DNA of 46,444 bases, from positions 1 through 46,444 of the forward strand of contig JBMFLE010000001.1 of the NCBI GenBank assembly GCA_049971355.1, written 5' to 3'. Shown piece by piece: positions 2,335 through 46,444 of this stretch. How positions within the stretch are numbered: the first letter of the stretch is position 1; each line of letters starts with the position of its first letter. A program made the position numbers and the translations under genes. The stretch comes from Patescibacteria group bacterium (GTDB lineage: Bacteria > Patescibacteriota > Patescibacteriia > UBA2591 > UBA4787). The notes below the pieces were generated by a model. That model did no database searches, had not been told where the DNA came from, and worked only from the letters and a program-made list of their open reading frames with translations.

Positions 2335-3552
2335 TTATTTTTTACTCTCTATTTTCTCTTCCTCCTGAGTTTTATTTGTTTCTGTCTTTTTTACTTCTTC
2401 TTTTGTTTCCTCAGTTTTTTTAGTCTCTTTAGGAATCGTTTGAATCTCAATCTCATAGCCAGTTAATCTTGAAGCTAAGCGGACATTTTGACCAGCTCGA
2501 CCAATAGCCAAAGAAAGATACTCTTCTTTAATTTTTATCACTGCTTTCTTGGTCTCCTTGTCTATCTCAGCAGATTGAATTTTGGCTGGTGATAAAGCAT
2601 TGATGACAAATTTTAATGGATCTTCGTTCCATTCAATGATGTCAATTTTTTCACCACCCAATTCGGCAATAATAGTTTGAATTCGAATTCCTCTTTGTCC
2701 AATACAGGCCCCCACTGGATCAATACTTTTCTCTTTAGTCCAAACTGCCACTTTGGTCCGAGAGCCAGCCTCGCGAGCAATAGCCTTAATTTCAACTAAT
2801 CCATTGGCAATTTCTGGAATCTCTTGTCTGAAGAGTTCTCTCACAATTTCCGGATGCCGACGCGAGAGAATAACTTCCGGACCTTTAGTTGTTTGTTTAA
2901 CAGCTTGAAGATAAAATTGCATTTTTTGTCCGGGATTATATTTTTCTTCTAAAATTTGTTCTGAAGGTGGTAGAAGAGCGACAGTATCGGGTAAATCAAC
3001 TAAAACCAAATTTTTCTCCCGACGCTGAATTACACCAGTAATTATTTTTCCTTCCTGACTTTTATAACGGTCAAAAATAGTTTGCCTCTCAGCCTCACGC
3101 AATCTTTGAATAATTACTTGTTTGGCAGTTTGAGCTGCCACTCGGCCAAATCCGACTGGCAAAGGTAACTCAGTTATCACCATATCGCCGACTTTATAAC
3201 TTTTCTTGATTTTTCTTGCTTCGGATAATTGAATTTCGGTCCGGGGATTAAAATGGCGTTTCTCTGCCTCAACTAAAGTTTCGGTTGATAACTTCTCGGC
3301 TTCTACTTTTTTAACTTCAGACTTTGCTAAATCTTCTTCTGGCAGATCCTCAACTACTGTTTTGACATCAAAAACTTTCATTGAACCATCTTCAGGGTTA
3401 AATTCAACTTTGATATTTTGATTTTTTTGGCCATAATCTCGGCGATAAGCAGCAGCTAGCGCTTGTTCAATGGCGCCTAAAACTGTTTCTTTGGAAAGCT
3501 TCTTCTCCTGACAAATTTGTTCAATGGCCTGGAGAATAGTTAACTCAGCCAT
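2335..3552 (-). CDS. nusA: Transcription termination/antitermination factor NusA
   Basis: 405 aa with an N-terminal NusA domain, an S1-like segment (GKIITGVIQRREKNLVLVDL), two KH motifs (GACIGQRGIRIQ, LAIGRAGQNVRLAS) and a Lys/Glu-rich tail. Confidence 0.95.
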   Translation of the reverse strand: MAELTILQAIEQICQEKKLSKETVLGAIEQALAAAYRRDYGQKNQNIKVEFNPEDGSMKVFDVKTVVEDLPEEDLAKSEVKKVEAEKLSTETLVEAEKRHFNPRTEIQLSEARKIKKSYKVGDMVITELPLPVGFGRVAAQTAKQVIIQRLREAERQTIFDRYKSQEGKIITGVIQRREKNLVLVDLPDTVALLPPSEQILEEKYNPGQKMQFYLQAVKQTTKGPEVILSRRHPEIVRELFRQEIPEIANGLVEIKAIAREAGSRTKVAVWTKEKSIDPVGACIGQRGIRIQTIIAELGGEKIDIIEWNEDPLKFVINALSPAKIQSAEIDKETKKAVIKIKEEYLSLAIGRAGQNVRLASRLTGYEIEIQTIPKETKKTEETKEEVKKTETNKTQEEEKIESKK

Positions 3553-3743
3553 AATTTTAAAATTAATGTTTAATTCTTTAAAAGAGAATTAGCCTATTTT
3601 TAGGCTAACTTACTTATATAAAATTATATCAGATTTAAAATAATTTGCCTGTGGATAACTGAGCTGATGCATCAGCCGCAGACCCTTTGTTTCTAATTTC
3701 ATACGAATGAACCAAATTGGTCAGTGGCTACACTAATTTAAAA

Positions 3744-3814
3744 AGCGGGAGAAGGGAATCGAACCCTCGTAACCAGCTTGGAGGGCTGGCGCATTACCAC
3801 TATGCTACTCCCGC
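3744..3814 (-). tRNA. tRNA-Gly(UCC): tRNA-Gly(UCC), no encoded CCA
   Basis: Minus strand reads GCGGGAG-TA-GCAT-AGTGGTA-ATGC-G-CCAGC-CCTCCAA-GCTGG-TTAC-GAGGG-TTCGATT-CCCTT-CTCCCGC-T, a 71-nt cloverleaf with U73. The anticodon loop has C rather than U at position 33. Confidence 0.9.
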
Positions 3815-3817
3815 AAG

Positions 3818-4071
3818 TCGGAGTGGTGAGGTTCGCACCCACGATCTCCTGCTCCTTCACCCCGTTAGAAAAATATATGATGCATATATAGATTCTATCG
3901 GGGATGCCAGATTTGAACTGGCGACCTCTCGCTCCCAAAGCGAGCGCTCTAAACCAACTGAGCTAATCCCCGGCAACTCAATGTATAAAAGTTAAATTAT
4001 TCGTACTTTATACTTTGATAATTTCTAACGGGGCAAGAAGCAGGCGCCTTAAACTACTGGGCCACACTCCG
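3818..4071 (-). tRNA. Interrupted tRNA gene (5' part 4071->4034, 3' part 3853->3818) with a 180-nt anticodon-loop insertion; joined anticodon loop UUCUUGA (CUU, Lys-like)
   Basis: The joined halves give a 74-nt cloverleaf. It has a perfect 7-bp acceptor stem (CGGAGTG/CACTCCG), a D arm GCCC-AGTAGTTTA-AGGC, an anticodon stem CCTGC/GCAGG, a variable loop AGATC, a T arm GTGGG-TGCGAAC-CTCAC and A73. The insertion 3854-4033 is closed by a perfect 12-bp inverted repeat (3860-3871 / 4022-4033). Confidence 0.75.
3898..3972 (-). tRNA. tRNA-Pro(UGG): tRNA-Pro(UGG), nested inside the insertion of the interrupted tRNA
   Basis: CGGGGAT-TA-GCTC-AGTTGGTTTA-GAGC-G-CTCGC-TTTGGGA-GCGAG-AGGTC-GCCAG-TTCAAAT-CTGGC-ATCCCCG-A, 75 nt, with the C1-G72 pair typical of bacterial tRNA-Pro. 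Confidence 0.92.
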
Positions 4072-4087
4072 ACTTAAACACTAAAAT

Positions 4088-4115
4088 ATTTTAATATTTA
4101 TTTTATAAAAGTCAA
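4088..4115 (-). promoter_or_regulatory. Sigma70-like promoter for the tRNA cluster
   Basis: Minus strand reads TTGACT (4115->4110), N16, TAAAAT (4093->4088). The -10 box ends 16 nt upstream of position 1 of the interrupted tRNA. Confidence 0.55.
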
Positions 4116-4118
4116 TCA

Positions 4119-4141
4119 AATGCACGACCTAATAATACACT
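4119..4141 (-). promoter_or_regulatory. Conserved 23-nt box 3 nt upstream of a -35 hexamer (copy 1)
   Basis: AGTGTATTATTAGGTCGTGCATT on the minus strand, identical to 18961-18983 and at the same 3-nt distance from a TTGACT/TTGTCA -35. Confidence 0.45.
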
Positions 4142-4211
4142 TGACACTAAGGGGGCCAAACCAAAAATGAAGACGAAAATGAAAAAAATTTAATGACCGC
4201 TAAAATCAAGG

Positions 4212-4247
4212 GGTGGAATATGGAAGCGATCGCCGCGATATTCCACC
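4212..4247. repeat. Hairpin with GCGATCGC core
   Basis: GGTGGAATAT ... ATATTCCACC 10-bp stem enclosing the GCGATCGC palindrome. Confidence 0.5.
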
Positions 4248-4317
4248 TCTTTACCCCTACACCAATATATTAGCGCGGAGATAAATTGGGCTTACTTAGG
4301 TATCAATTATGTCAATT

Positions 4318-4338
4318 TCGGGAAGTCCGACCTCCCGA
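4318..4338. repeat. REP-like palindromic unit (TCGGGAGG-loop-CCTCCCGA family)
   Basis: tcgggaagtccgacctcccga. Related copies lie at 4573-4597, 23563-23587 and 23588-23610. Confidence 0.6.
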
Positions 4339-4407
4339 GACTTTATCAATAAATTGGAGTATATATTATATACCAATTTCTTTTATTCGCTATTTTTTGA
4401 GTTTTGG

Positions 4408-4441
4408 ACTATTTACCTATTCGGGCGAATAGGTAAATAGT
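4408..4441. repeat. 16-bp perfect hairpin
   Basis: ACTATTTACCTATTCG-GG-CGAATAGGTAAATAGT. Confidence 0.6.
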
Positions 4442-4572
4442 AAAATTTAAATATCAAAATCGTGCCAAATTTCAAAATTAATGATATAGATCAATTAATA
4501 GGGTCTGACCCGGAATCTCCATAGAAAAAGCAAAAGGAAGGTTTAAAATTAACTCCCTGAAACTACGTGGAA

Positions 4573-4597
4573 TTTCGGGGGGTCCGACCTCCCGAAA
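4573..4597. repeat. REP-like palindromic unit
   Basis: tttcggggggtccgacctcccgaaa. Confidence 0.6.
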
Positions 4598-4617
4598 AAT
4601 ACTTGAATGAAAATAAC

Positions 4618-5871
4618 CTAACAGCAATACAAATTTTCTGGCGGCTTATTTTCCGATATTTCGCCGAAAGGATTACCAAATTTTTGGATATTGGCAATCA
4701 TTTTTTTATTTTCTTCGGTTGATAAAACAGCGCCATTCAATTTATTTCTAATTTTTTTCATCAATTCTGGTAAATTAATTTTAACCGGACAATTTTCAAA
4801 ACAAGTCGAGCAAAGAGTGCAGGCATAAGCATTTGATTTTTTTGCTTGAAGTAAACTATCAGATAAAGCAGTAAAAATAATTCCCTTACTACCTAAATAT
4901 TTATCACCATAATTGCGACCTAATTGATGAAAGGCTGGACAAAAATTCAAACAAGCGCCACAATTTAAACAATATAATAATTCTTCAAAACCTTCTTTTA
5001 ATAACCGCGAACGACCATTATCAACTAAAATTAAATAAACTTCTTTTGCCCCTTGAGCGCCGATCACTAATCTATTTTGAATATCTGCTGTCTTTGATGG
5101 TCCAGAGATAATTGAAACATAAACCGGCCAATCCTGTCCAGCGCCCCAAATGGCTGAAGCTTTGACAATTTTCATCGCTGACTCAATATCTGGGGCCAAT
5201 TTTTCAACTCCAGAAATAATAATGTGCCTATCCGGCCAGCGTGAAACCAAAGAGATATTACCTTCGTTTTCTAATAAAATAATTCTGCCGTCAGCAGTAA
5301 TGACATTGGCTCCAGTAATACCAACTGTTGTTTCGGGAATTTTTTTTCTTAAATATTGACGGGCAAAATTGGCAATCACTTCTGCTTTTGGTTCAATTTT
5401 CTGACCAAATTTTTGATAAATTTTTTCAACAATCTTTTCTGGTGTTAAATGAAAGGCCGGAAAAACCGGATGTAAATCTTCCTCAGTCATCCACTGATTA
5501 ATCATGTCGCCCAAATCAGTCTCAATTAATTCTTTGCCTAAAAAAACTGATTTTAGATCAATCTCGTCAGCAATGTTTGATTTTGATTTTAAAATAACTC
5601 GGTCATCTTGAATCAATTTCTGAATAATCATTCGGGCATCAGCTGCATCTCTTGCCTCAAAAACTTTAATTTTATTTTTTTCTAAATTGGCAATGGTTTG
5701 TTTTTTAACTTCTTCTAAATTATCAATGGTAGCTTTTTTAATCTTATAAAGTTCCTCTCTCAATAATATCCGCTCTAAATCACTGGCTGTTTTTTCTCTT
5801 TTTTCTTTATATTCCAAAACCACCCGCCAAATATTTTCTTTGATTTGTGTGGATAAAAATTCTCTAATCAT
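4618..5871 (-). CDS. LutB-like iron-sulfur protein (LUD-type domain plus 2x[4Fe-4S] ferredoxin motifs)
   Basis: 417 aa. The C-terminal part has CLNCGACLNFCP and CTLCSTCFENCP motifs. The N-terminal 300 aa resemble the LUD/DUF162 fold of LutB/YkgF. Confidence 0.7.
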   Translation of the reverse strand: MIREFLSTQIKENIWRVVLEYKEKREKTASDLERILLREELYKIKKATIDNLEEVKKQTIANLEKNKIKVFEARDAADARMIIQKLIQDDRVILKSKSNIADEIDLKSVFLGKELIETDLGDMINQWMTEEDLHPVFPAFHLTPEKIVEKIYQKFGQKIEPKAEVIANFARQYLRKKIPETTVGITGANVITADGRIILLENEGNISLVSRWPDRHIIISGVEKLAPDIESAMKIVKASAIWGAGQDWPVYVSIISGPSKTADIQNRLVIGAQGAKEVYLILVDNGRSRLLKEGFEELLYCLNCGACLNFCPAFHQLGRNYGDKYLGSKGIIFTALSDSLLQAKKSNAYACTLCSTCFENCPVKINLPELMKKIRNKLNGAVLSTEENKKMIANIQKFGNPFGEISENKPPENLYCC

Positions 5872-7373: not shown

Positions 7374-7910
7374 TTAAATCTTTTTCTTGCGAAAAATAAA
7401 TTTTATTAATAAAAAAACGATAGCTAAAACTATTAAACCAATGGCAATCCAGCCAATCATAACTTGTTTTGAACTTCTTTTACTGTCAAAATTTTGATTA
7501 TTTTGTTCTGATTGAATTTTCTCAATCGGCGAGGGACATTTCTGATTGAGACAGCGCAAAACTTCATTTCTAATTTGCGAACCAATAAAATCATTATAAC
7601 CAACGAATGATTTCTCACCAATGTAAATAACCGGCACCTGAATCTCAGTCAAACTTAATCCGTAAGCTCGAGCCATGGCTAAATAAATAAACCGATTATT
7701 TTGATTATAAAAAACTTCTAAAGGAAAAACATCTAATCCAGCGTACTGTTTCTTTAGTTGCTCTAAAAAGATTTCCGCTCGGGCACAATGCGGACAACCC
7801 TGACCATAGAAAAAATAAAGTCCAACCTGGTTTTGTTGAGCCAGAACAGGACTAAAAATTATTAGCAAAAAACCAACAACTAATAGTAATAAATTTAGAT
7901 GCCTTTGCAT
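7374..7910 (-). CDS. Secreted, membrane-anchored thioredoxin-fold protein (CPHC active site)
   Basis: 178 aa with an N-terminal signal/anchor, GQGCPHCARAE and a C-terminal TM helix, adjacent to the CcdA-like gene. Confidence 0.6.
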   Translation of the reverse strand: MQRHLNLLLLVVGFLLIIFSPVLAQQNQVGLYFFYGQGCPHCARAEIFLEQLKKQYAGLDVFPLEVFYNQNNRFIYLAMARAYGLSLTEIQVPVIYIGEKSFVGYNDFIGSQIRNEVLRCLNQKCPSPIEKIQSEQNNQNFDSKRSSKQVMIGWIAIGLIVLAIVFLLIKFIFRKKKI

Positions 7911-10815: not shown

Positions 10816-10827
10816 GGTCGCCAAAAG

Positions 10828-10898
10828 TGGACCCGCGGGGAGTCGCACCCCGGACTCCTCCATGCCATAGAGGTGTTTTACTGCTAGACTACGGGCCC
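10828..10898 (-). tRNA. tRNA-Ala(GGC): tRNA-Ala(GGC)
   Basis: The acceptor GGGCCCG/CGGGTCC gives the G3:U70 Ala identity pair and the anticodon loop is ATGGCAT. The D loop AGCAGTA and T loop TGCGACT are unusual. Confidence 0.88.
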
Positions 10899-10911
10899 AA
10901 TTTTTAATCAG

Positions 10912-11904
10912 CTAAAACCAATTAAAAAGTTTGGCAATAAAGAGGATATAAACAAGAAAATAAAAACTACCTTCCCAAATATGAATTTTACTTGAAATTC
11001 CTGAAATAACAAAAAGAAGTGTTGCTAAAGCCATGGTTGGGATACCAATCGCAAAAGTTTGACCATCAACTGACAAAACATGAAATAAGGCAGGAAAACC
11101 AATGACTACCAAACCATTAAAAACATTTGAACCCAAAATATTGCCAACAGCAATTTCTGACTTCTTCTTTAAAGCTGCTTTAACAGAAACTAATAATTCT
11201 GGGAGAGAAGTGCCAATTGCTACTGCGGTGACGGTAATTATTCCAGTTGCAACCTTTAAAATTTCTGAAAGCTTAATTAAAGCATTAATTAAATATTGAG
11301 CGCCTGCCAACAAAGCAAGAATTCCAATTATTAAGAGAAAAAAATCTTTAAAATTAAGTTTTGGCCGAGCCGGTATTTCTTTTTTAAGAATAATTATTTT
11401 TCTTCTTGTAACGCGATCAGGCAAAACTTCTTCAACTCCTTCCATTTTTTCCTCCTTCCTTTCTGAAACAGTGTAAAAAAGATAAATAACATAAGTAATA
11501 ATCAATAAAATTGATTCACCAAGAGTGACTTGTCGATCCCAAACAACGCCTATCACTAAAACTGTACTAATAGCCAGTAAAGGTAAATCTAAATCAATTA
11601 AATTTTTCTGAACAATTATTTTTCGAGCAAAGATTGCTGAAAGACCAATGATGAGTAAAATATTAGCGATATTAGAGCCAATAGCATTCGCTACCGGCAC
11701 ATCTGATACACCCTTAAAGACTGCTACTGATGAAGAAATAAGTTCTGGGAAGGAAGTGCCAACCCCAACAATTGTGATACCAATAATGAAGGGTGAAATA
11801 CCAATAGCCAGACCAATTTTTTCCGCACTAACAATTAACCAATCAGCGCCCTTAATTAGCACAAAAAGTGAAATAATGAAAATAATAATCCAAAAAATAA
11901 GCAT
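10912..11904 (-). CDS. CaCA-family Ca2+/Na+ antiporter (YrbG-like)
   Basis: Two alpha-repeats are present (GTSFPELISS, GTSLPELLVS; GSNIANILL, GSNVFNGLV). I place the start at MLIFWIII because the longer ORF (to 11988) runs into tRNA-Leu. Confidence 0.85.
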   Translation of the reverse strand: MLIFWIIIFIISLFVLIKGADWLIVSAEKIGLAIGISPFIIGITIVGVGTSFPELISSSVAVFKGVSDVPVANAIGSNIANILLIIGLSAIFARKIIVQKNLIDLDLPLLAISTVLVIGVVWDRQVTLGESILLIITYVIYLFYTVSERKEEKMEGVEEVLPDRVTRRKIIILKKEIPARPKLNFKDFFLLIIGILALLAGAQYLINALIKLSEILKVATGIITVTAVAIGTSLPELLVSVKAALKKKSEIAVGNILGSNVFNGLVVIGFPALFHVLSVDGQTFAIGIPTMALATLLFVISGISSKIHIWEGSFYFLVYILFIAKLFNWF

Positions 11905-11961: not shown

Positions 11962-12045
11962 TGCCGGGAGGGAGATTCGCACTCCCACGACCCAAACGGG
12001 TCACAGGTCCTCAGCCTGTTGTGTCTACTATTCCACCACCCCGGC
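11962..12045 (-). tRNA. tRNA-Leu(GAG): tRNA-Leu(GAG), class II with long variable arm
   Basis: 84 nt with anticodon loop CTGAGGA, a variable arm GACCCGTTTGGGTCG, D loop AATAGTAGA and T loop TGCGAAT. Confidence 0.9.
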
Positions 12046-33544: not shown

Positions 33545-33970
33545 TATTAATTTTCGGACCAAAATTGACCGATTTTCGAACTCTTGATCTAAAAACTGAA
33601 TAATTTTTTCTCTAAATTTTTGGTATCTATCTCTAATTGTAGTATAACTTAAATTTAGAAAATTTGTCAAGCATCCATTTTTAGACAGATTGTCTCTCCG
33701 CATTCTTTAGCCAACCCCCTTTTACTTTTAAAAGGAGCTGTCTGATTAACGGCCATAGCGATGCTTGATTTTTTTCCCAGTCCCTGATCAACAGTCAGCT
33801 GACCCACTATTTTCAAAAGAGCGTCTTTCTCTCTTTTCAGCCCGGACAATTCCAGTAAGGTTCCCGAGTTCTGACCAGAACGGCTTAAATAGCCATGGAT
33901 AATTCTGGGTTGAACTCCGTATTTTTGGGCTAAACCCCCACACCAAGTTTTGGTGTGGGGTAAATTTTAG
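33545..33970 (-). pseudogene. Decayed IS3-family OrfA (COG2963-type) remnant plus other transposase-like debris
   Basis: One minus frame reads ..GGLAQKYGVQPRIIHGYLS..LKREKDALLKIVGQLTVDQGLGKKS, the HTH and leucine-zipper region of IS3 OrfA. There is no proper start, the sequence is split over frames, and no OrfB is present. Confidence 0.55.
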
Positions 33971-33971
33971 G

Positions 33972-34044
33972 GGTGGCATACGGGATTTGCACCCGTGCTG
34001 AAAGTTCCACAGACTTCCGTGCTAACTACTACACCAATGCCACC
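33972..34044 (-). tRNA. tRNA-His(GUG): tRNA-His(GUG) with encoded G-1
   Basis: G(-1)-GTGGCAT-TG-GTGT-AGTAGTTA-GCAC-G-GAAGT-CTGTGGA-ACTTT-CAGC-ACGGG-TGCAAAT-CCCGT-ATGCCAC-C. Confidence 0.9.
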
Positions 34045-34208
34045 ACACTCCGCTTCTGCGGAAAATTCTAAATTTTAAATTCGAAATCCGAAATAAATTC
34101 TAATGCCCAAAATTCAAATTCTATTTTTTACCCTCGGCAAATCTGGTTTGCCAAGCCGAAGCTCTCAATGGAGGGCAAAGGCTGGTACCCCCAGGCTGAA
34201 TTGCCCTG

Positions 34209-34505
34209 TCATCCGACAGGACACCCTATCGAATGATAGGGCGAACCACCAACGAAATTAATATAATCTCTAATTTGTTGTCTTAATAATCTTTTACCTT
34301 CTGTAGTTTTTAAAAATTTTTCTCGTCTTAGAGCATCGCTTTTTAACAGATAAGCTTCATAATAAATTAATTTGAGAGGACGCCTGTTTTTTGTAGATTT
34401 AACTTTTCCTAAATTATGTTCCTTAATTCTTCGCCTTAAATCATCTGTTACTCCAATATAAAATTTTTTATCTTTAAGACTAAGTAAAATATAGAGATAA
34501 TACAT
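34209..34505 (-). CDS. GIY-YIG nuclease-superfamily small protein
   Basis: YYLYILLSLKDKKFYIGVTDDLRRRIKEHN.. matches the GIY...YIG...R...E pattern. The C-terminal about 15 aa run into a structured repeat and may not be genuine. Confidence 0.75.
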   Translation of the reverse strand: MYYLYILLSLKDKKFYIGVTDDLRRRIKEHNLGKVKSTKNRRPLKLIYYEAYLLKSDALRREKFLKTTEGKRLLRQQIRDYINFVGGSPYHSIGCPVG

Positions 34506-34527
34506 ACGTAACAAATTAGATAGATAA

Positions 34528-38484: not shown

Positions 38485-38547
38485 GATAGCACGATTTTTA
38501 TTAATGTCAATTTTGTGTTGACTTATTTAAATTAAATATTAAAATAG

Positions 38548-46034: not shown

Positions 46035-46444
46035 AAAATAAGCCTAATTTGAGCTTATTACTATTATAGCCTAAAATTAATAAAAATCAAGCCCTTATAA
46101 TATTTAAAGGGAATTGATTCACCCCGATTAGAGAATAGCTAACGCTTCACCCAAATGCTTCGCACTTCGTAGAGCCTGATACGTTATACGCTGTAATTTC
46201 TTGGAGTTGAAAAACGATTAAAAGACCTTTTGAAAAAATCTGTTGGCTCGTCCCCACATCAATACATTGGTGTGGGGTAATACTCTTGCCTATTTTAAGA
46301 AAAATTGATAAAATGAAGATAGTAAACCCGTTAGAAATTAAATATATGGTATGTCTATGTTTTACAAAATACCAAAGGTAAGTGGTATATCGGTTCAATT
46401 AGAGATTTGCGAAAAAGAATTTTAACGGGATTCGTATAATATAC

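Follow-up and report, generated by a model that had tools for sequence, protein, structure and literature searches.

We examined contig JBMFLE010000001.1, part of a metagenome-assembled genome (MAG) of an uncultured, ultra-small Patescibacteria group bacterium, and analysed it over its whole length as a single window of 46,444 bp. At positions 3818-4071 of its minus strand, one tRNA gene, here called the outer tRNA, is split at its anticodon loop by an insert that bears a tRNA-Pro gene, and this structure is real, very unusual and statistically secure. Read along the minus strand, the order is a promoter-like site, the 5' half of the outer tRNA, the insert with the inner tRNA-Pro, the 3' half of the outer tRNA, the trinucleotide CTT and tRNA-Gly(UCC). 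The 5' half (4034-4071, 38 nt) comprises the 5' strand of the acceptor stem, U8, a 3-bp D stem, a D loop of the A18 type, the 5' strand of the anticodon stem and the loop nucleotides UUCUUG, whilst the 3' half (3818-3853, 36 nt) comprises A38, the 3' strand of the anticodon stem, a 5-nt variable loop, a T arm with G55, the 3' strand of the acceptor stem and A73.

Tested singly, neither half gave a tRNA call, whilst the two halves joined form a 74-nt cloverleaf that ARAGORN calls as tRNA-Lys(CUU). The outer tRNA was also called in place when overlap was allowed (-io), as c[3817,4071] i(38,180), and masking of the tRNA-Pro left this in-place call identical. The call survived to 115% of the ARAGORN default thresholds, the corresponding range for the ten intact tRNAs of the contig being 105-120%. 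If the break is placed between positions 37 and 38, the insert occupies 3854-4033 (180 nt, minus strand) and encloses a canonical tRNA-Pro(UGG) (3898-3972, minus strand; ARAGORN, and the Rfam tRNA model at 69.7 bits) with C1-G72, A73 and G37 and without an encoded CCA. Spacers of 61 and 44 nt separate this inner gene from the 5' and the 3' junction, respectively, and the insert minus tRNA-Pro amounts to only about 105 nt. A repeat search and the predicted fold both show a perfect 12-bp inverted repeat at the ends of the insert, with its 5' arm (CCCCGTTAGAAA) at 4022-4033 and its 3' arm (TTTCTAACGGGG) at 3860-3871. A first-pass annotation of this stretch had proposed the 74-nt cloverleaf made from two halves that are not tRNAs alone, the inner tRNA-Pro and the perfect repeat, and had suggested a search with long introns allowed; coordinates and program calls agree with it on all of these points.

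The sigma-70-like promoter TTGACT-N16-TAAAAT (4088-4115, minus strand, matching the consensus at 10/12 positions) is the sole promoter-like site upstream of the three tRNAs, and tRNA-Gly(UCC) (3744-3814, minus strand; ARAGORN and Rfam) starts at 3814, leaving a gap of 3 nt after the outer 3' half, both features being as first annotated. Because there is a single promoter, the outer halves, tRNA-Pro and tRNA-Gly are probably co-transcribed, as had also been proposed, and a terminator-like hairpin followed by a T run (3587-3610, minus strand), situated before nusA, is a candidate end of the tRNA transcript. A 29-nt block of this promoter recurs with 26/29 identical positions at 38518-38546, upstream of a bactofilin gene, which suggests a strong-promoter consensus common to genes of this genome.

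Predicted fold of the locus

Folding of 4075-3815 with RNAfold gave a cloverleaf within a cloverleaf at -105.5 kcal/mol (z = -7.15), and 0/200 shuffled sequences were as stable. In this fold the acceptor helix of the outer tRNA reaches 11 bp by extending into the leader and trailer (4075-4065 / 3825-3815), and the anticodon stem gains five pairs from the loop and the insert to become 10 bp long (4044-4035 / 3857-3848). Past a bulged G3858 there follow 13 bp that contain the perfect repeat (CCCCGUUAGAAA / UUUCUAACGGGG), and the whole stalk, stacked on the anticodon stem, is 23 bp (10 + 13; 4044-4022 / 3871-3848). The helix of about 22 bp proposed earlier is thus present as a long helix, and it is interrupted by the single bulged G rather than by a 1x2 internal loop. 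Within the UGAAGG segment (3854-3859, minus strand), U pairs with G4034, G3858 is the bulged nucleotide and AAGG pairs with U33-U36 of the loop, a pairing that masks the outer anticodon in the predicted structure. Distal to the stalk lies a four-way junction formed by the AT-rich hairpin HP1 (3978-4018, minus strand), which spans the stretch from the closing helix to tRNA-Pro, by tRNA-Pro itself, and by the 7-bp hairpin HP2 (3873-3889, minus strand), which lies between tRNA-Pro and the closing helix.

The fold contains no 3-nt bulges and places the formal 3' junction within a helix, in line with the first-pass view that bulge-helix-bulge (BHB) geometry is lacking. That view had also dismissed a group I intron; a group I or group II intron was rejected here since no Rfam intron family matched at E <= 10 in 3600-4500. 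A tmRNA was likewise rejected, ARAGORN finding none, as was an integron attC-like core (GTTAGAA/TTCTAAC), of which one site pair is present and the second core is absent. The 5' arm of the insert might be read as a copy of the tRNA-Pro 3' end and its trailer (CCCCGATAGAAT, 10/12). The resemblance is suggestive, but a window is expected to hold about five of the kind, and the idea was set aside.

Junction and identity of the outer tRNA

The sequence alone does not determine the junction or the anticodon of the outer tRNA. ARAGORN puts the insert at position 38 and accepts every junction that leaves a 7-nt loop, with CUU, CUG, CAG or AAG as the resulting anticodon, and Lys(CUU) requires the removal of exactly 180 nt. 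A TG is found on the outer side of both inverted-repeat arms, the chance of a 2-bp repeat being 1/16. Under an inverted-repeat and duplication model, excision from repeat to repeat together with one TG (3860-4033 plus one TG, given as 166 nt) leaves a 78-nt tRNA with an anticodon stem of 6-7 bp, the loop CUUGAAG, the anticodon UGA and A37, which ARAGORN accepts to 115% thresholds, equal to the CUU model. Compared with the tRNAs sampled, the body of the outer tRNA (a 3-bp GCC/GGC D stem, an 11-nt D loop, the acceptor and the T arm) is closest to Ser, Cys or Pro-type tRNAs and not to Lys, and C1-G72, A73 and G37 are features that we take to be Pro-like. Anticodons ending in U, which belong to ANN-reading tRNAs, are normally accompanied by A37 (t6A37), and the G37 of the CUU model is atypical. 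The first-pass annotation had read the outer gene as a Lys-like tRNA broken at 37/38; the program call of Lys(CUU) with i(38,180) bears this out, but the junction and anticodon are not unique, given the equal acceptance of CUG, CAG, AAG and UGA and the un-Lys-like body.

The D loop of the outer tRNA has AG in place of the usual G18-G19, and its T loop has G in place of U55. In agreement with the first-pass annotation, comparison of the contig tRNAs showed the same A18/G55 combination in the intact Ala(GGC) (10827-10898), Leu(GAG) (11962-12045) and His (33970-34043), making four tRNAs when the outer one (3818-4071) is counted. Amongst 505 tRNAs from all sequences gathered in the analysis, G55 was present in 14, and D-loop GG was absent from 14/14 of these, which argues that A18/G55 is a genuine covarying pair and, on this comparison, a recurrent covarying substitute for the G18-U55 elbow pair. 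In the syntenic relative L170 (NusA 68% identical) the orthologues of Leu(GAG) and Ala(GGC) are G18/U55, as against A18/G55 in the copies on the contig, and its tRNA-Gly(GCC) is A18/G55 (positions compared in L170: 2286-2360 and 20833-21000); for the tRNAs compared, this shows that the elbow state flips between lineages. The matched derived A18/G55 and the 7/7 acceptor pairing together show that the halves stem from one gene. The first-pass annotation had drawn from this signature that the halves evolve as one molecule, which does not follow, because the change could predate the split.

Chance controls and search for relatives

When the halves were shuffled, 0/5000 yielded a tRNA call. A frame consisting of 42 nt, a skip of 180 nt and 39 nt, slid along both strands of the window (92,368 positions), gave tRNA calls at this locus only. 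ARAGORN with -io applied to 813 kb of unrelated loci returned 56 intron calls, nearly all of which join halves of adjacent intact tRNAs; only in six did the exons lie outside intact tRNAs, and in no case was an intact tRNA enclosed. The arrangement is beyond chance.

The NusA protein of the contig is 100% identical to MGC9048606.1. Relatives found through NusA (68-81% identity) and LutB (74-86%) have the tRNA operon at neither flank: in the closest of those found through NusA (77-81%), nusA lies downstream of PrkA or SpoVR, the LutB relatives at 74-86% have no tRNA between lutB and nusA, and the nearest relatives have an unknown open reading frame (ORF) of 259 aa after lutB. The lutB-nusA junction (window 3552-5871, compared with L001, L125 and L126) is a rearrangement point that houses the tRNA operon, and the genes flanking the locus are collinear with relatives on each side. 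L125, the nearest relative, has no outer 3' half: there the orthologous tRNA-Gly(UCC) (66/71 identical) comes straight after a serpin gene on the other strand. In the spacer between lutB and the tRNAs the hairpin motif CGGGAGGTCGGAC(C/T)(C/T)CCCG occurs twice (about 4319-4337 and about 4573-4593), and a similar hairpin follows lutB in the relative L126 (about 3665-3690), possibly representing a small palindromic repeat or terminator family.

A pattern scan with the 19-mer of the outer D arm gave 0 matches in 185,579 species genomes and in viral contigs, and the scan of the 185,579 species genomes with the 18-mer of the outer T arm gave 37 chance matches in GC-rich organisms and no relative. 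A metagenome scan with the 21-mer of the tRNA-Pro anticodon arm, which is too generic a probe, retrieved 120 unrelated tRNA-Pro(UGG) loci, of which 0 were nested; a leader-trailer helix of at least 12 bp was present at 2/120 of them, with a tRNA-shaped frame at neither. Leader-trailer pairing was not seen as a general trait of the tRNAs of this genome either. With the 92-aa ORF antisense to the cluster as protein query, an indexed search gave 0 matches and a HMMER search gave only matches antisense to tRNA-Gly, and a search of phage DNA with the locus matched only tRNA-Pro. The literature searched mentions neither tRNA introns nor split tRNAs for Patescibacteria, and it has no report of EndA in the candidate phyla radiation. 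The 41 ORFs of the contig include housekeeping genes (CCA-adding enzyme, Pth, SecDF, DnaB and AsnRS) and no RNA ligase or splicing endonuclease (EndA- or RtcB-type), 46 kb being a small sample of the genome. The arrangement is therefore a singleton at a rearranged locus. No relative compared has it, and the comparison of the region upstream of nusA in related genomes, which the first-pass annotation had suggested, gave no second copy in which covariation in the stalk and outer stems might show.

Comparison with known systems

The closest precedent is found in the tRNA-containing tRNA introns of the Lak megaphages of Prevotella, whose tRNA-Tyr, -Phe, -Thr and -Gly have 'enigmatic' introns of 79-114 nt beside the anticodon, the intron of tRNA-Thr containing a tRNA recognised by Rfam (Devoto et al., 2019, PMC6784885, Table S6), and this layout has previously been noted only in giant gut phages. 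We find that all four introns of that table run from a short 5' hairpin through an A/U linker to a tRNA-like cloverleaf that stops 1-3 nt short of the 3' junction, and that none forms a closing stalk when folded. They share with the present insert a position adjoining the anticodon (36/37 or 37/38), a cloverleaf within, a hairpin and linker ahead of the inner tRNA, and the lack of group I or BHB features, and they too occur in a bacterial context, that of a phage of bacteria. They differ in having no closing inverted repeat or long stalk at a length of 79-114 nt, whereas the present insert has 180 nt with a 12-bp repeat and a 23-bp stalk. Their inner element is mostly degenerate and abuts the 3' junction, whilst here it is a canonical, presumably essential, tRNA-Pro placed centrally in a four-way junction. 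Moreover, their host is a phage and not a cellular bacterium, and there is no sequence similarity.

Split tRNAs and tRNAs spliced by proteins are considered characteristic of archaea and eukaryotes. In archaea they need a BHB (two 3-nt bulges with 4 bp between), the endonuclease EndA and the ligase RtcB; Nanoarchaeum has trans-spliced tRNA halves, and the intron of an archaeal tRNA-Trp encodes a box C/D RNA. The present locus is formally similar in a break that may be read at the canonical position, in the complementary arms of about 12 nt next to the halves and in having a second functional RNA in the intron, but it lacks the BHB, belongs to a bacterium and has its halves on one transcript rather than at separate loci. 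Group I introns (in tRNA-Leu(UAA), tRNA-fMet and others) are to our knowledge the only established bacterial tRNA introns; they share the anticodon-loop location, whereas the present insert has no group I core.

Bacterial rRNA intervening sequences (IVS) occupy dispensable hairpin tips, and fragmented rRNA still works. With these and with the RNase III stalks of rRNA the locus has in common an AT-rich insert, the ends of which form a long helix prolonging that of the host (23 bp here, where such stalks are taken to have at least about 20 bp), a sporadic distribution, tRNAs between the stalk arms (as with spacer tRNAs) and an expected fragmentation without religation. It differs in that the insert destroys the anticodon loop, and we know of no IVS in a tRNA gene. 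Palindromic mobile elements, such as the Rickettsia palindromic elements, resemble the insert in small size, perfect terminal repeats, a possible 2-bp TG target duplication and a structured-RNA target, and the terminal inverted repeats typical of miniature elements are matched here by 12/12 perfect positions. Such elements are multicopy and without a gene, however, and here there is one copy in 46 kb, with a tRNA gene as cargo.

Interpretation

With moderate confidence, we interpret the outer gene as a recently interrupted tRNA gene, the halves of which now serve as a structured leader and trailer of tRNA-Pro. A once-whole outer tRNA gene would have been interrupted in its anticodon loop by a cassette of 166-180 bp, made up of a tRNA-Pro gene between two small hairpins and bounded by the perfect 12-bp inverted repeat. 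The undefined junction, the TG-flanked perfect terminal repeats and the restoration of a tRNA under the duplication model all count in favour of such an insertion. The interpretation as a whole also draws on the lack of BHB geometry, of an Rfam intron match and of a ligase or splicing endonuclease on the contig, on the atypical G37, on the rearranged setting and on the finding that 0 of the 120 other tRNA-Pro(UGG) loci are nested. From the single promoter, one transcript would be made in which tRNA-Pro(UGG) is placed between the two outer halves and tRNA-Gly(UCC) comes last, and in this RNA the cassette ends are predicted to pair and to stack on the anticodon stem as the 23-bp stalk. RNase P and RNase Z recognise acceptor/T-arm modules, so cuts are expected where the outer frame, tRNA-Pro and tRNA-Gly each begin and end; these cuts would liberate tRNA-Pro and tRNA-Gly, both of which could then be completed by the CCA-adding enzyme encoded on the contig. 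Since CCA is the commonest Pro codon on the contig, tRNA-Pro must be released, and its release would necessarily sever the outer tRNA into two pieces. The severed halves would stay annealed through the 23-bp stalk and the acceptor helix of 7-11 bp, without an anticodon loop and with their new ends capped by HP1 and HP2. We know of no bacterial activity that trims such halves exactly and rejoins them, and for this reason the outer gene would no longer yield a decoding tRNA, as a tRNA fragmented in its anticodon loop should be unable to decode.

The stalk between the leader and trailer halves is a possible RNase III site, and a cut there, which is plausible, would produce ends staggered by 2 nt and a loop that is not of the right size. 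The 12-bp arm helix resembles an acceptor-T minihelix (7 + 5 bp), and if RNase P cut at its base, the cut would fall on the 5' junction; the RNase Z counterpart of this cut would leave five extra nucleotides. We do not expect known bacterial nucleases, in any combination, to rebuild a 7-nt anticodon loop. The interruption is probably recent in evolutionary terms, which would account for both halves being still intact.

Several observations weigh against an interrupted gene that has ceased to decode. The outer halves are undamaged, with 7/7 pairs in the acceptor stem and 5/5 in the anticodon and T stems, and they keep the conserved U8, A14, A21, G53, C56, A58 and C61 as well as the matched A18/G55, an integrity that also fits selection; streamlined genomes, moreover, have few pseudogenes. 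Four nucleotides of the insert pair with the anticodon, as in genuine pre-tRNA introns. AAG accounts for 163/1081 Lys codons on the contig, and no second Lys tRNA was found on its 46 kb. A cassette of the size of a miniature inverted-repeat transposable element that carries a working tRNA gene has no precedent, and the 46 kb hold no convincing second copy of the cassette arms, the exact matches being the two arms only. Finally, in the Lak phages the tRNAs whose introns contain a tRNA are conserved, and their splicing presumably takes place in the bacterial host.

Much of this speaks at the same time for the outer gene being a functional intron-containing or split tRNA, which we consider somewhat unlikely. 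The insert would be excised exactly, or the stalk-held halves joined after release of tRNA-Pro, either by a putative endonuclease/ligase pair or by RNase P and RNase Z with trimming and an RNA ligase, to give a decoding tRNA (with CUU or another anticodon) and an excised insert that doubles as the tRNA-Pro precursor. Its support comes from an intact cloverleaf that scores like the real tRNAs of the contig and has a matched elbow pair, from the anticodon-insert pairing and the use of AAG codons, from complementary 12-bp arms that recall the 12-14-nt arms of the Nanoarchaeum split tRNAs, and from the Tyr, Phe, Thr and Gly tRNAs of the Lak megaphages, where conserved anticodon-adjacent introns hold a tRNA or tRNA-like element in a bacterial host. 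Nevertheless, the BHB motif is absent, the 3' junction is buried in a helix, and, judging from the fold, cuts by RNase III or by RNase P and RNase Z would not give a 7-nt loop. G37 beside U36 is atypical, the junction and anticodon are ambiguous, no relative has the arrangement, and the candidate enzymes are not on the contig. We regard it as likewise unlikely that Patescibacteria have a protein-dependent route by which a gene with another tRNA gene inside it still yields a working tRNA; in such a route the exons would be kept together by the stalk during removal of the inner tRNA by RNase P and RNase Z, and putative trimming and ligation would rebuild the anticodon loop. If true, it would be a bacterial counterpart of archaeal split-tRNA trans-splicing, mechanistically akin to the Lak-phage tRNA introns.

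We think it quite improbable that the tRNA-shaped outer frame is under selection in a non-decoding role. As a scaffold for processing or stability, it would offer entry sites for RNase P and RNase Z at its ends and surround tRNA-Pro with a stalk of the RNase III type; alternatively, its two pieces would form a stable tRNA-like RNA with a separate function. The ordered architecture, with its 11-bp acceptor helix, 23-bp stalk, four-way junction and two hairpins capping the fragment ends, would suit such a role, and it is reminiscent of the leader-trailer stalks of rRNA operons and of rRNA IVS, which RNase III cuts without religation. A frame of this kind would not be needed, however, because the determinants for RNase P and RNase Z are already present in tRNA-Gly and tRNA-Pro themselves; the leader-trailer helices found at only 2/120 other tRNA-Pro loci have no tRNA-shaped frame, and the arrangement was seen in no relative. 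An assembly chimera or sequencing artefact is scarcely credible, for although the locus lies on a single MAG contig, with NusA and LutB each found on one contig only and no independent assembly of the strain, a misjoin would not make two exactly complementary 12-nt arms abutting both break points, nor an acceptor stem in which all 7 bp form over a distance of 180 nt, nor the match of A18 with G55, and the flanking genes are collinear with relatives on each side.

If the outer gene is indeed a recently interrupted tRNA gene, the locus may be a snapshot of tRNA gene splitting and would bear on theories that link split tRNAs, introns and mobile elements. If the tRNA is instead functional, it may point to an undescribed bacterial joining pathway, which would also explain the introns of the Lak phages. 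For RNase P, RNase Z and RNase III alike, the locus makes defined predictions within a single 260-nt transcript, a substrate that can be tested in vitro.

Other observations

An exact second copy of the initial 10 nt of the outer tRNA (CGGAGTGTGG) lies at 34043-34052, immediately upstream of tRNA-His and overlapping its first base. The recurrence is preceded by a similar AAG, about 0.1-0.5 such matches are expected by chance, and it may be a related 5'-end remnant or a coincidence. A small GIY-YIG nuclease ORF (34209-34514) lies between tRNA-Arg(UCU) and this tRNA-His, and from the ORF to tRNA-His there is a GC-rich, self-complementary stretch of about 150 nt (about 34060-34240) that has no Rfam match, in a contig that is otherwise 35% GC. 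A truncated GIY-YIG N-terminal motif (WYVYVLQNTKGKWYIGSIRDLRKRI) is found at the contig end (46335-46439), with the 14-mer CCCGTTAGAAATTA (46327-46340) just ahead of it; this 14-mer is identical to the 5' arm of the insert, and as a possible link between the two it was judged unconvincing (E = 0.04).

Two of the sequences gathered in the analysis have features of their own in tRNA genes. In L029 (230-560), three tandem repeats of about 120 nt directly follow an intact tRNA-Pro(UGG), each ending in the last 35 nt or so of that gene, and these look like serial attachment-site scars of elements integrating into tRNA-Pro. In L075, an 87-kb metagenome contig with a 20-tRNA array, Pro(UGG) and Leu(CAG) carry anticodon-loop inserts of 61 and 36 nt (7479-7611 and 10856-10974, respectively); ARAGORN calls both at up to 115% of its default thresholds, and the inserts are perhaps genuine short introns, in an array that belongs to a phage or a bacterium.

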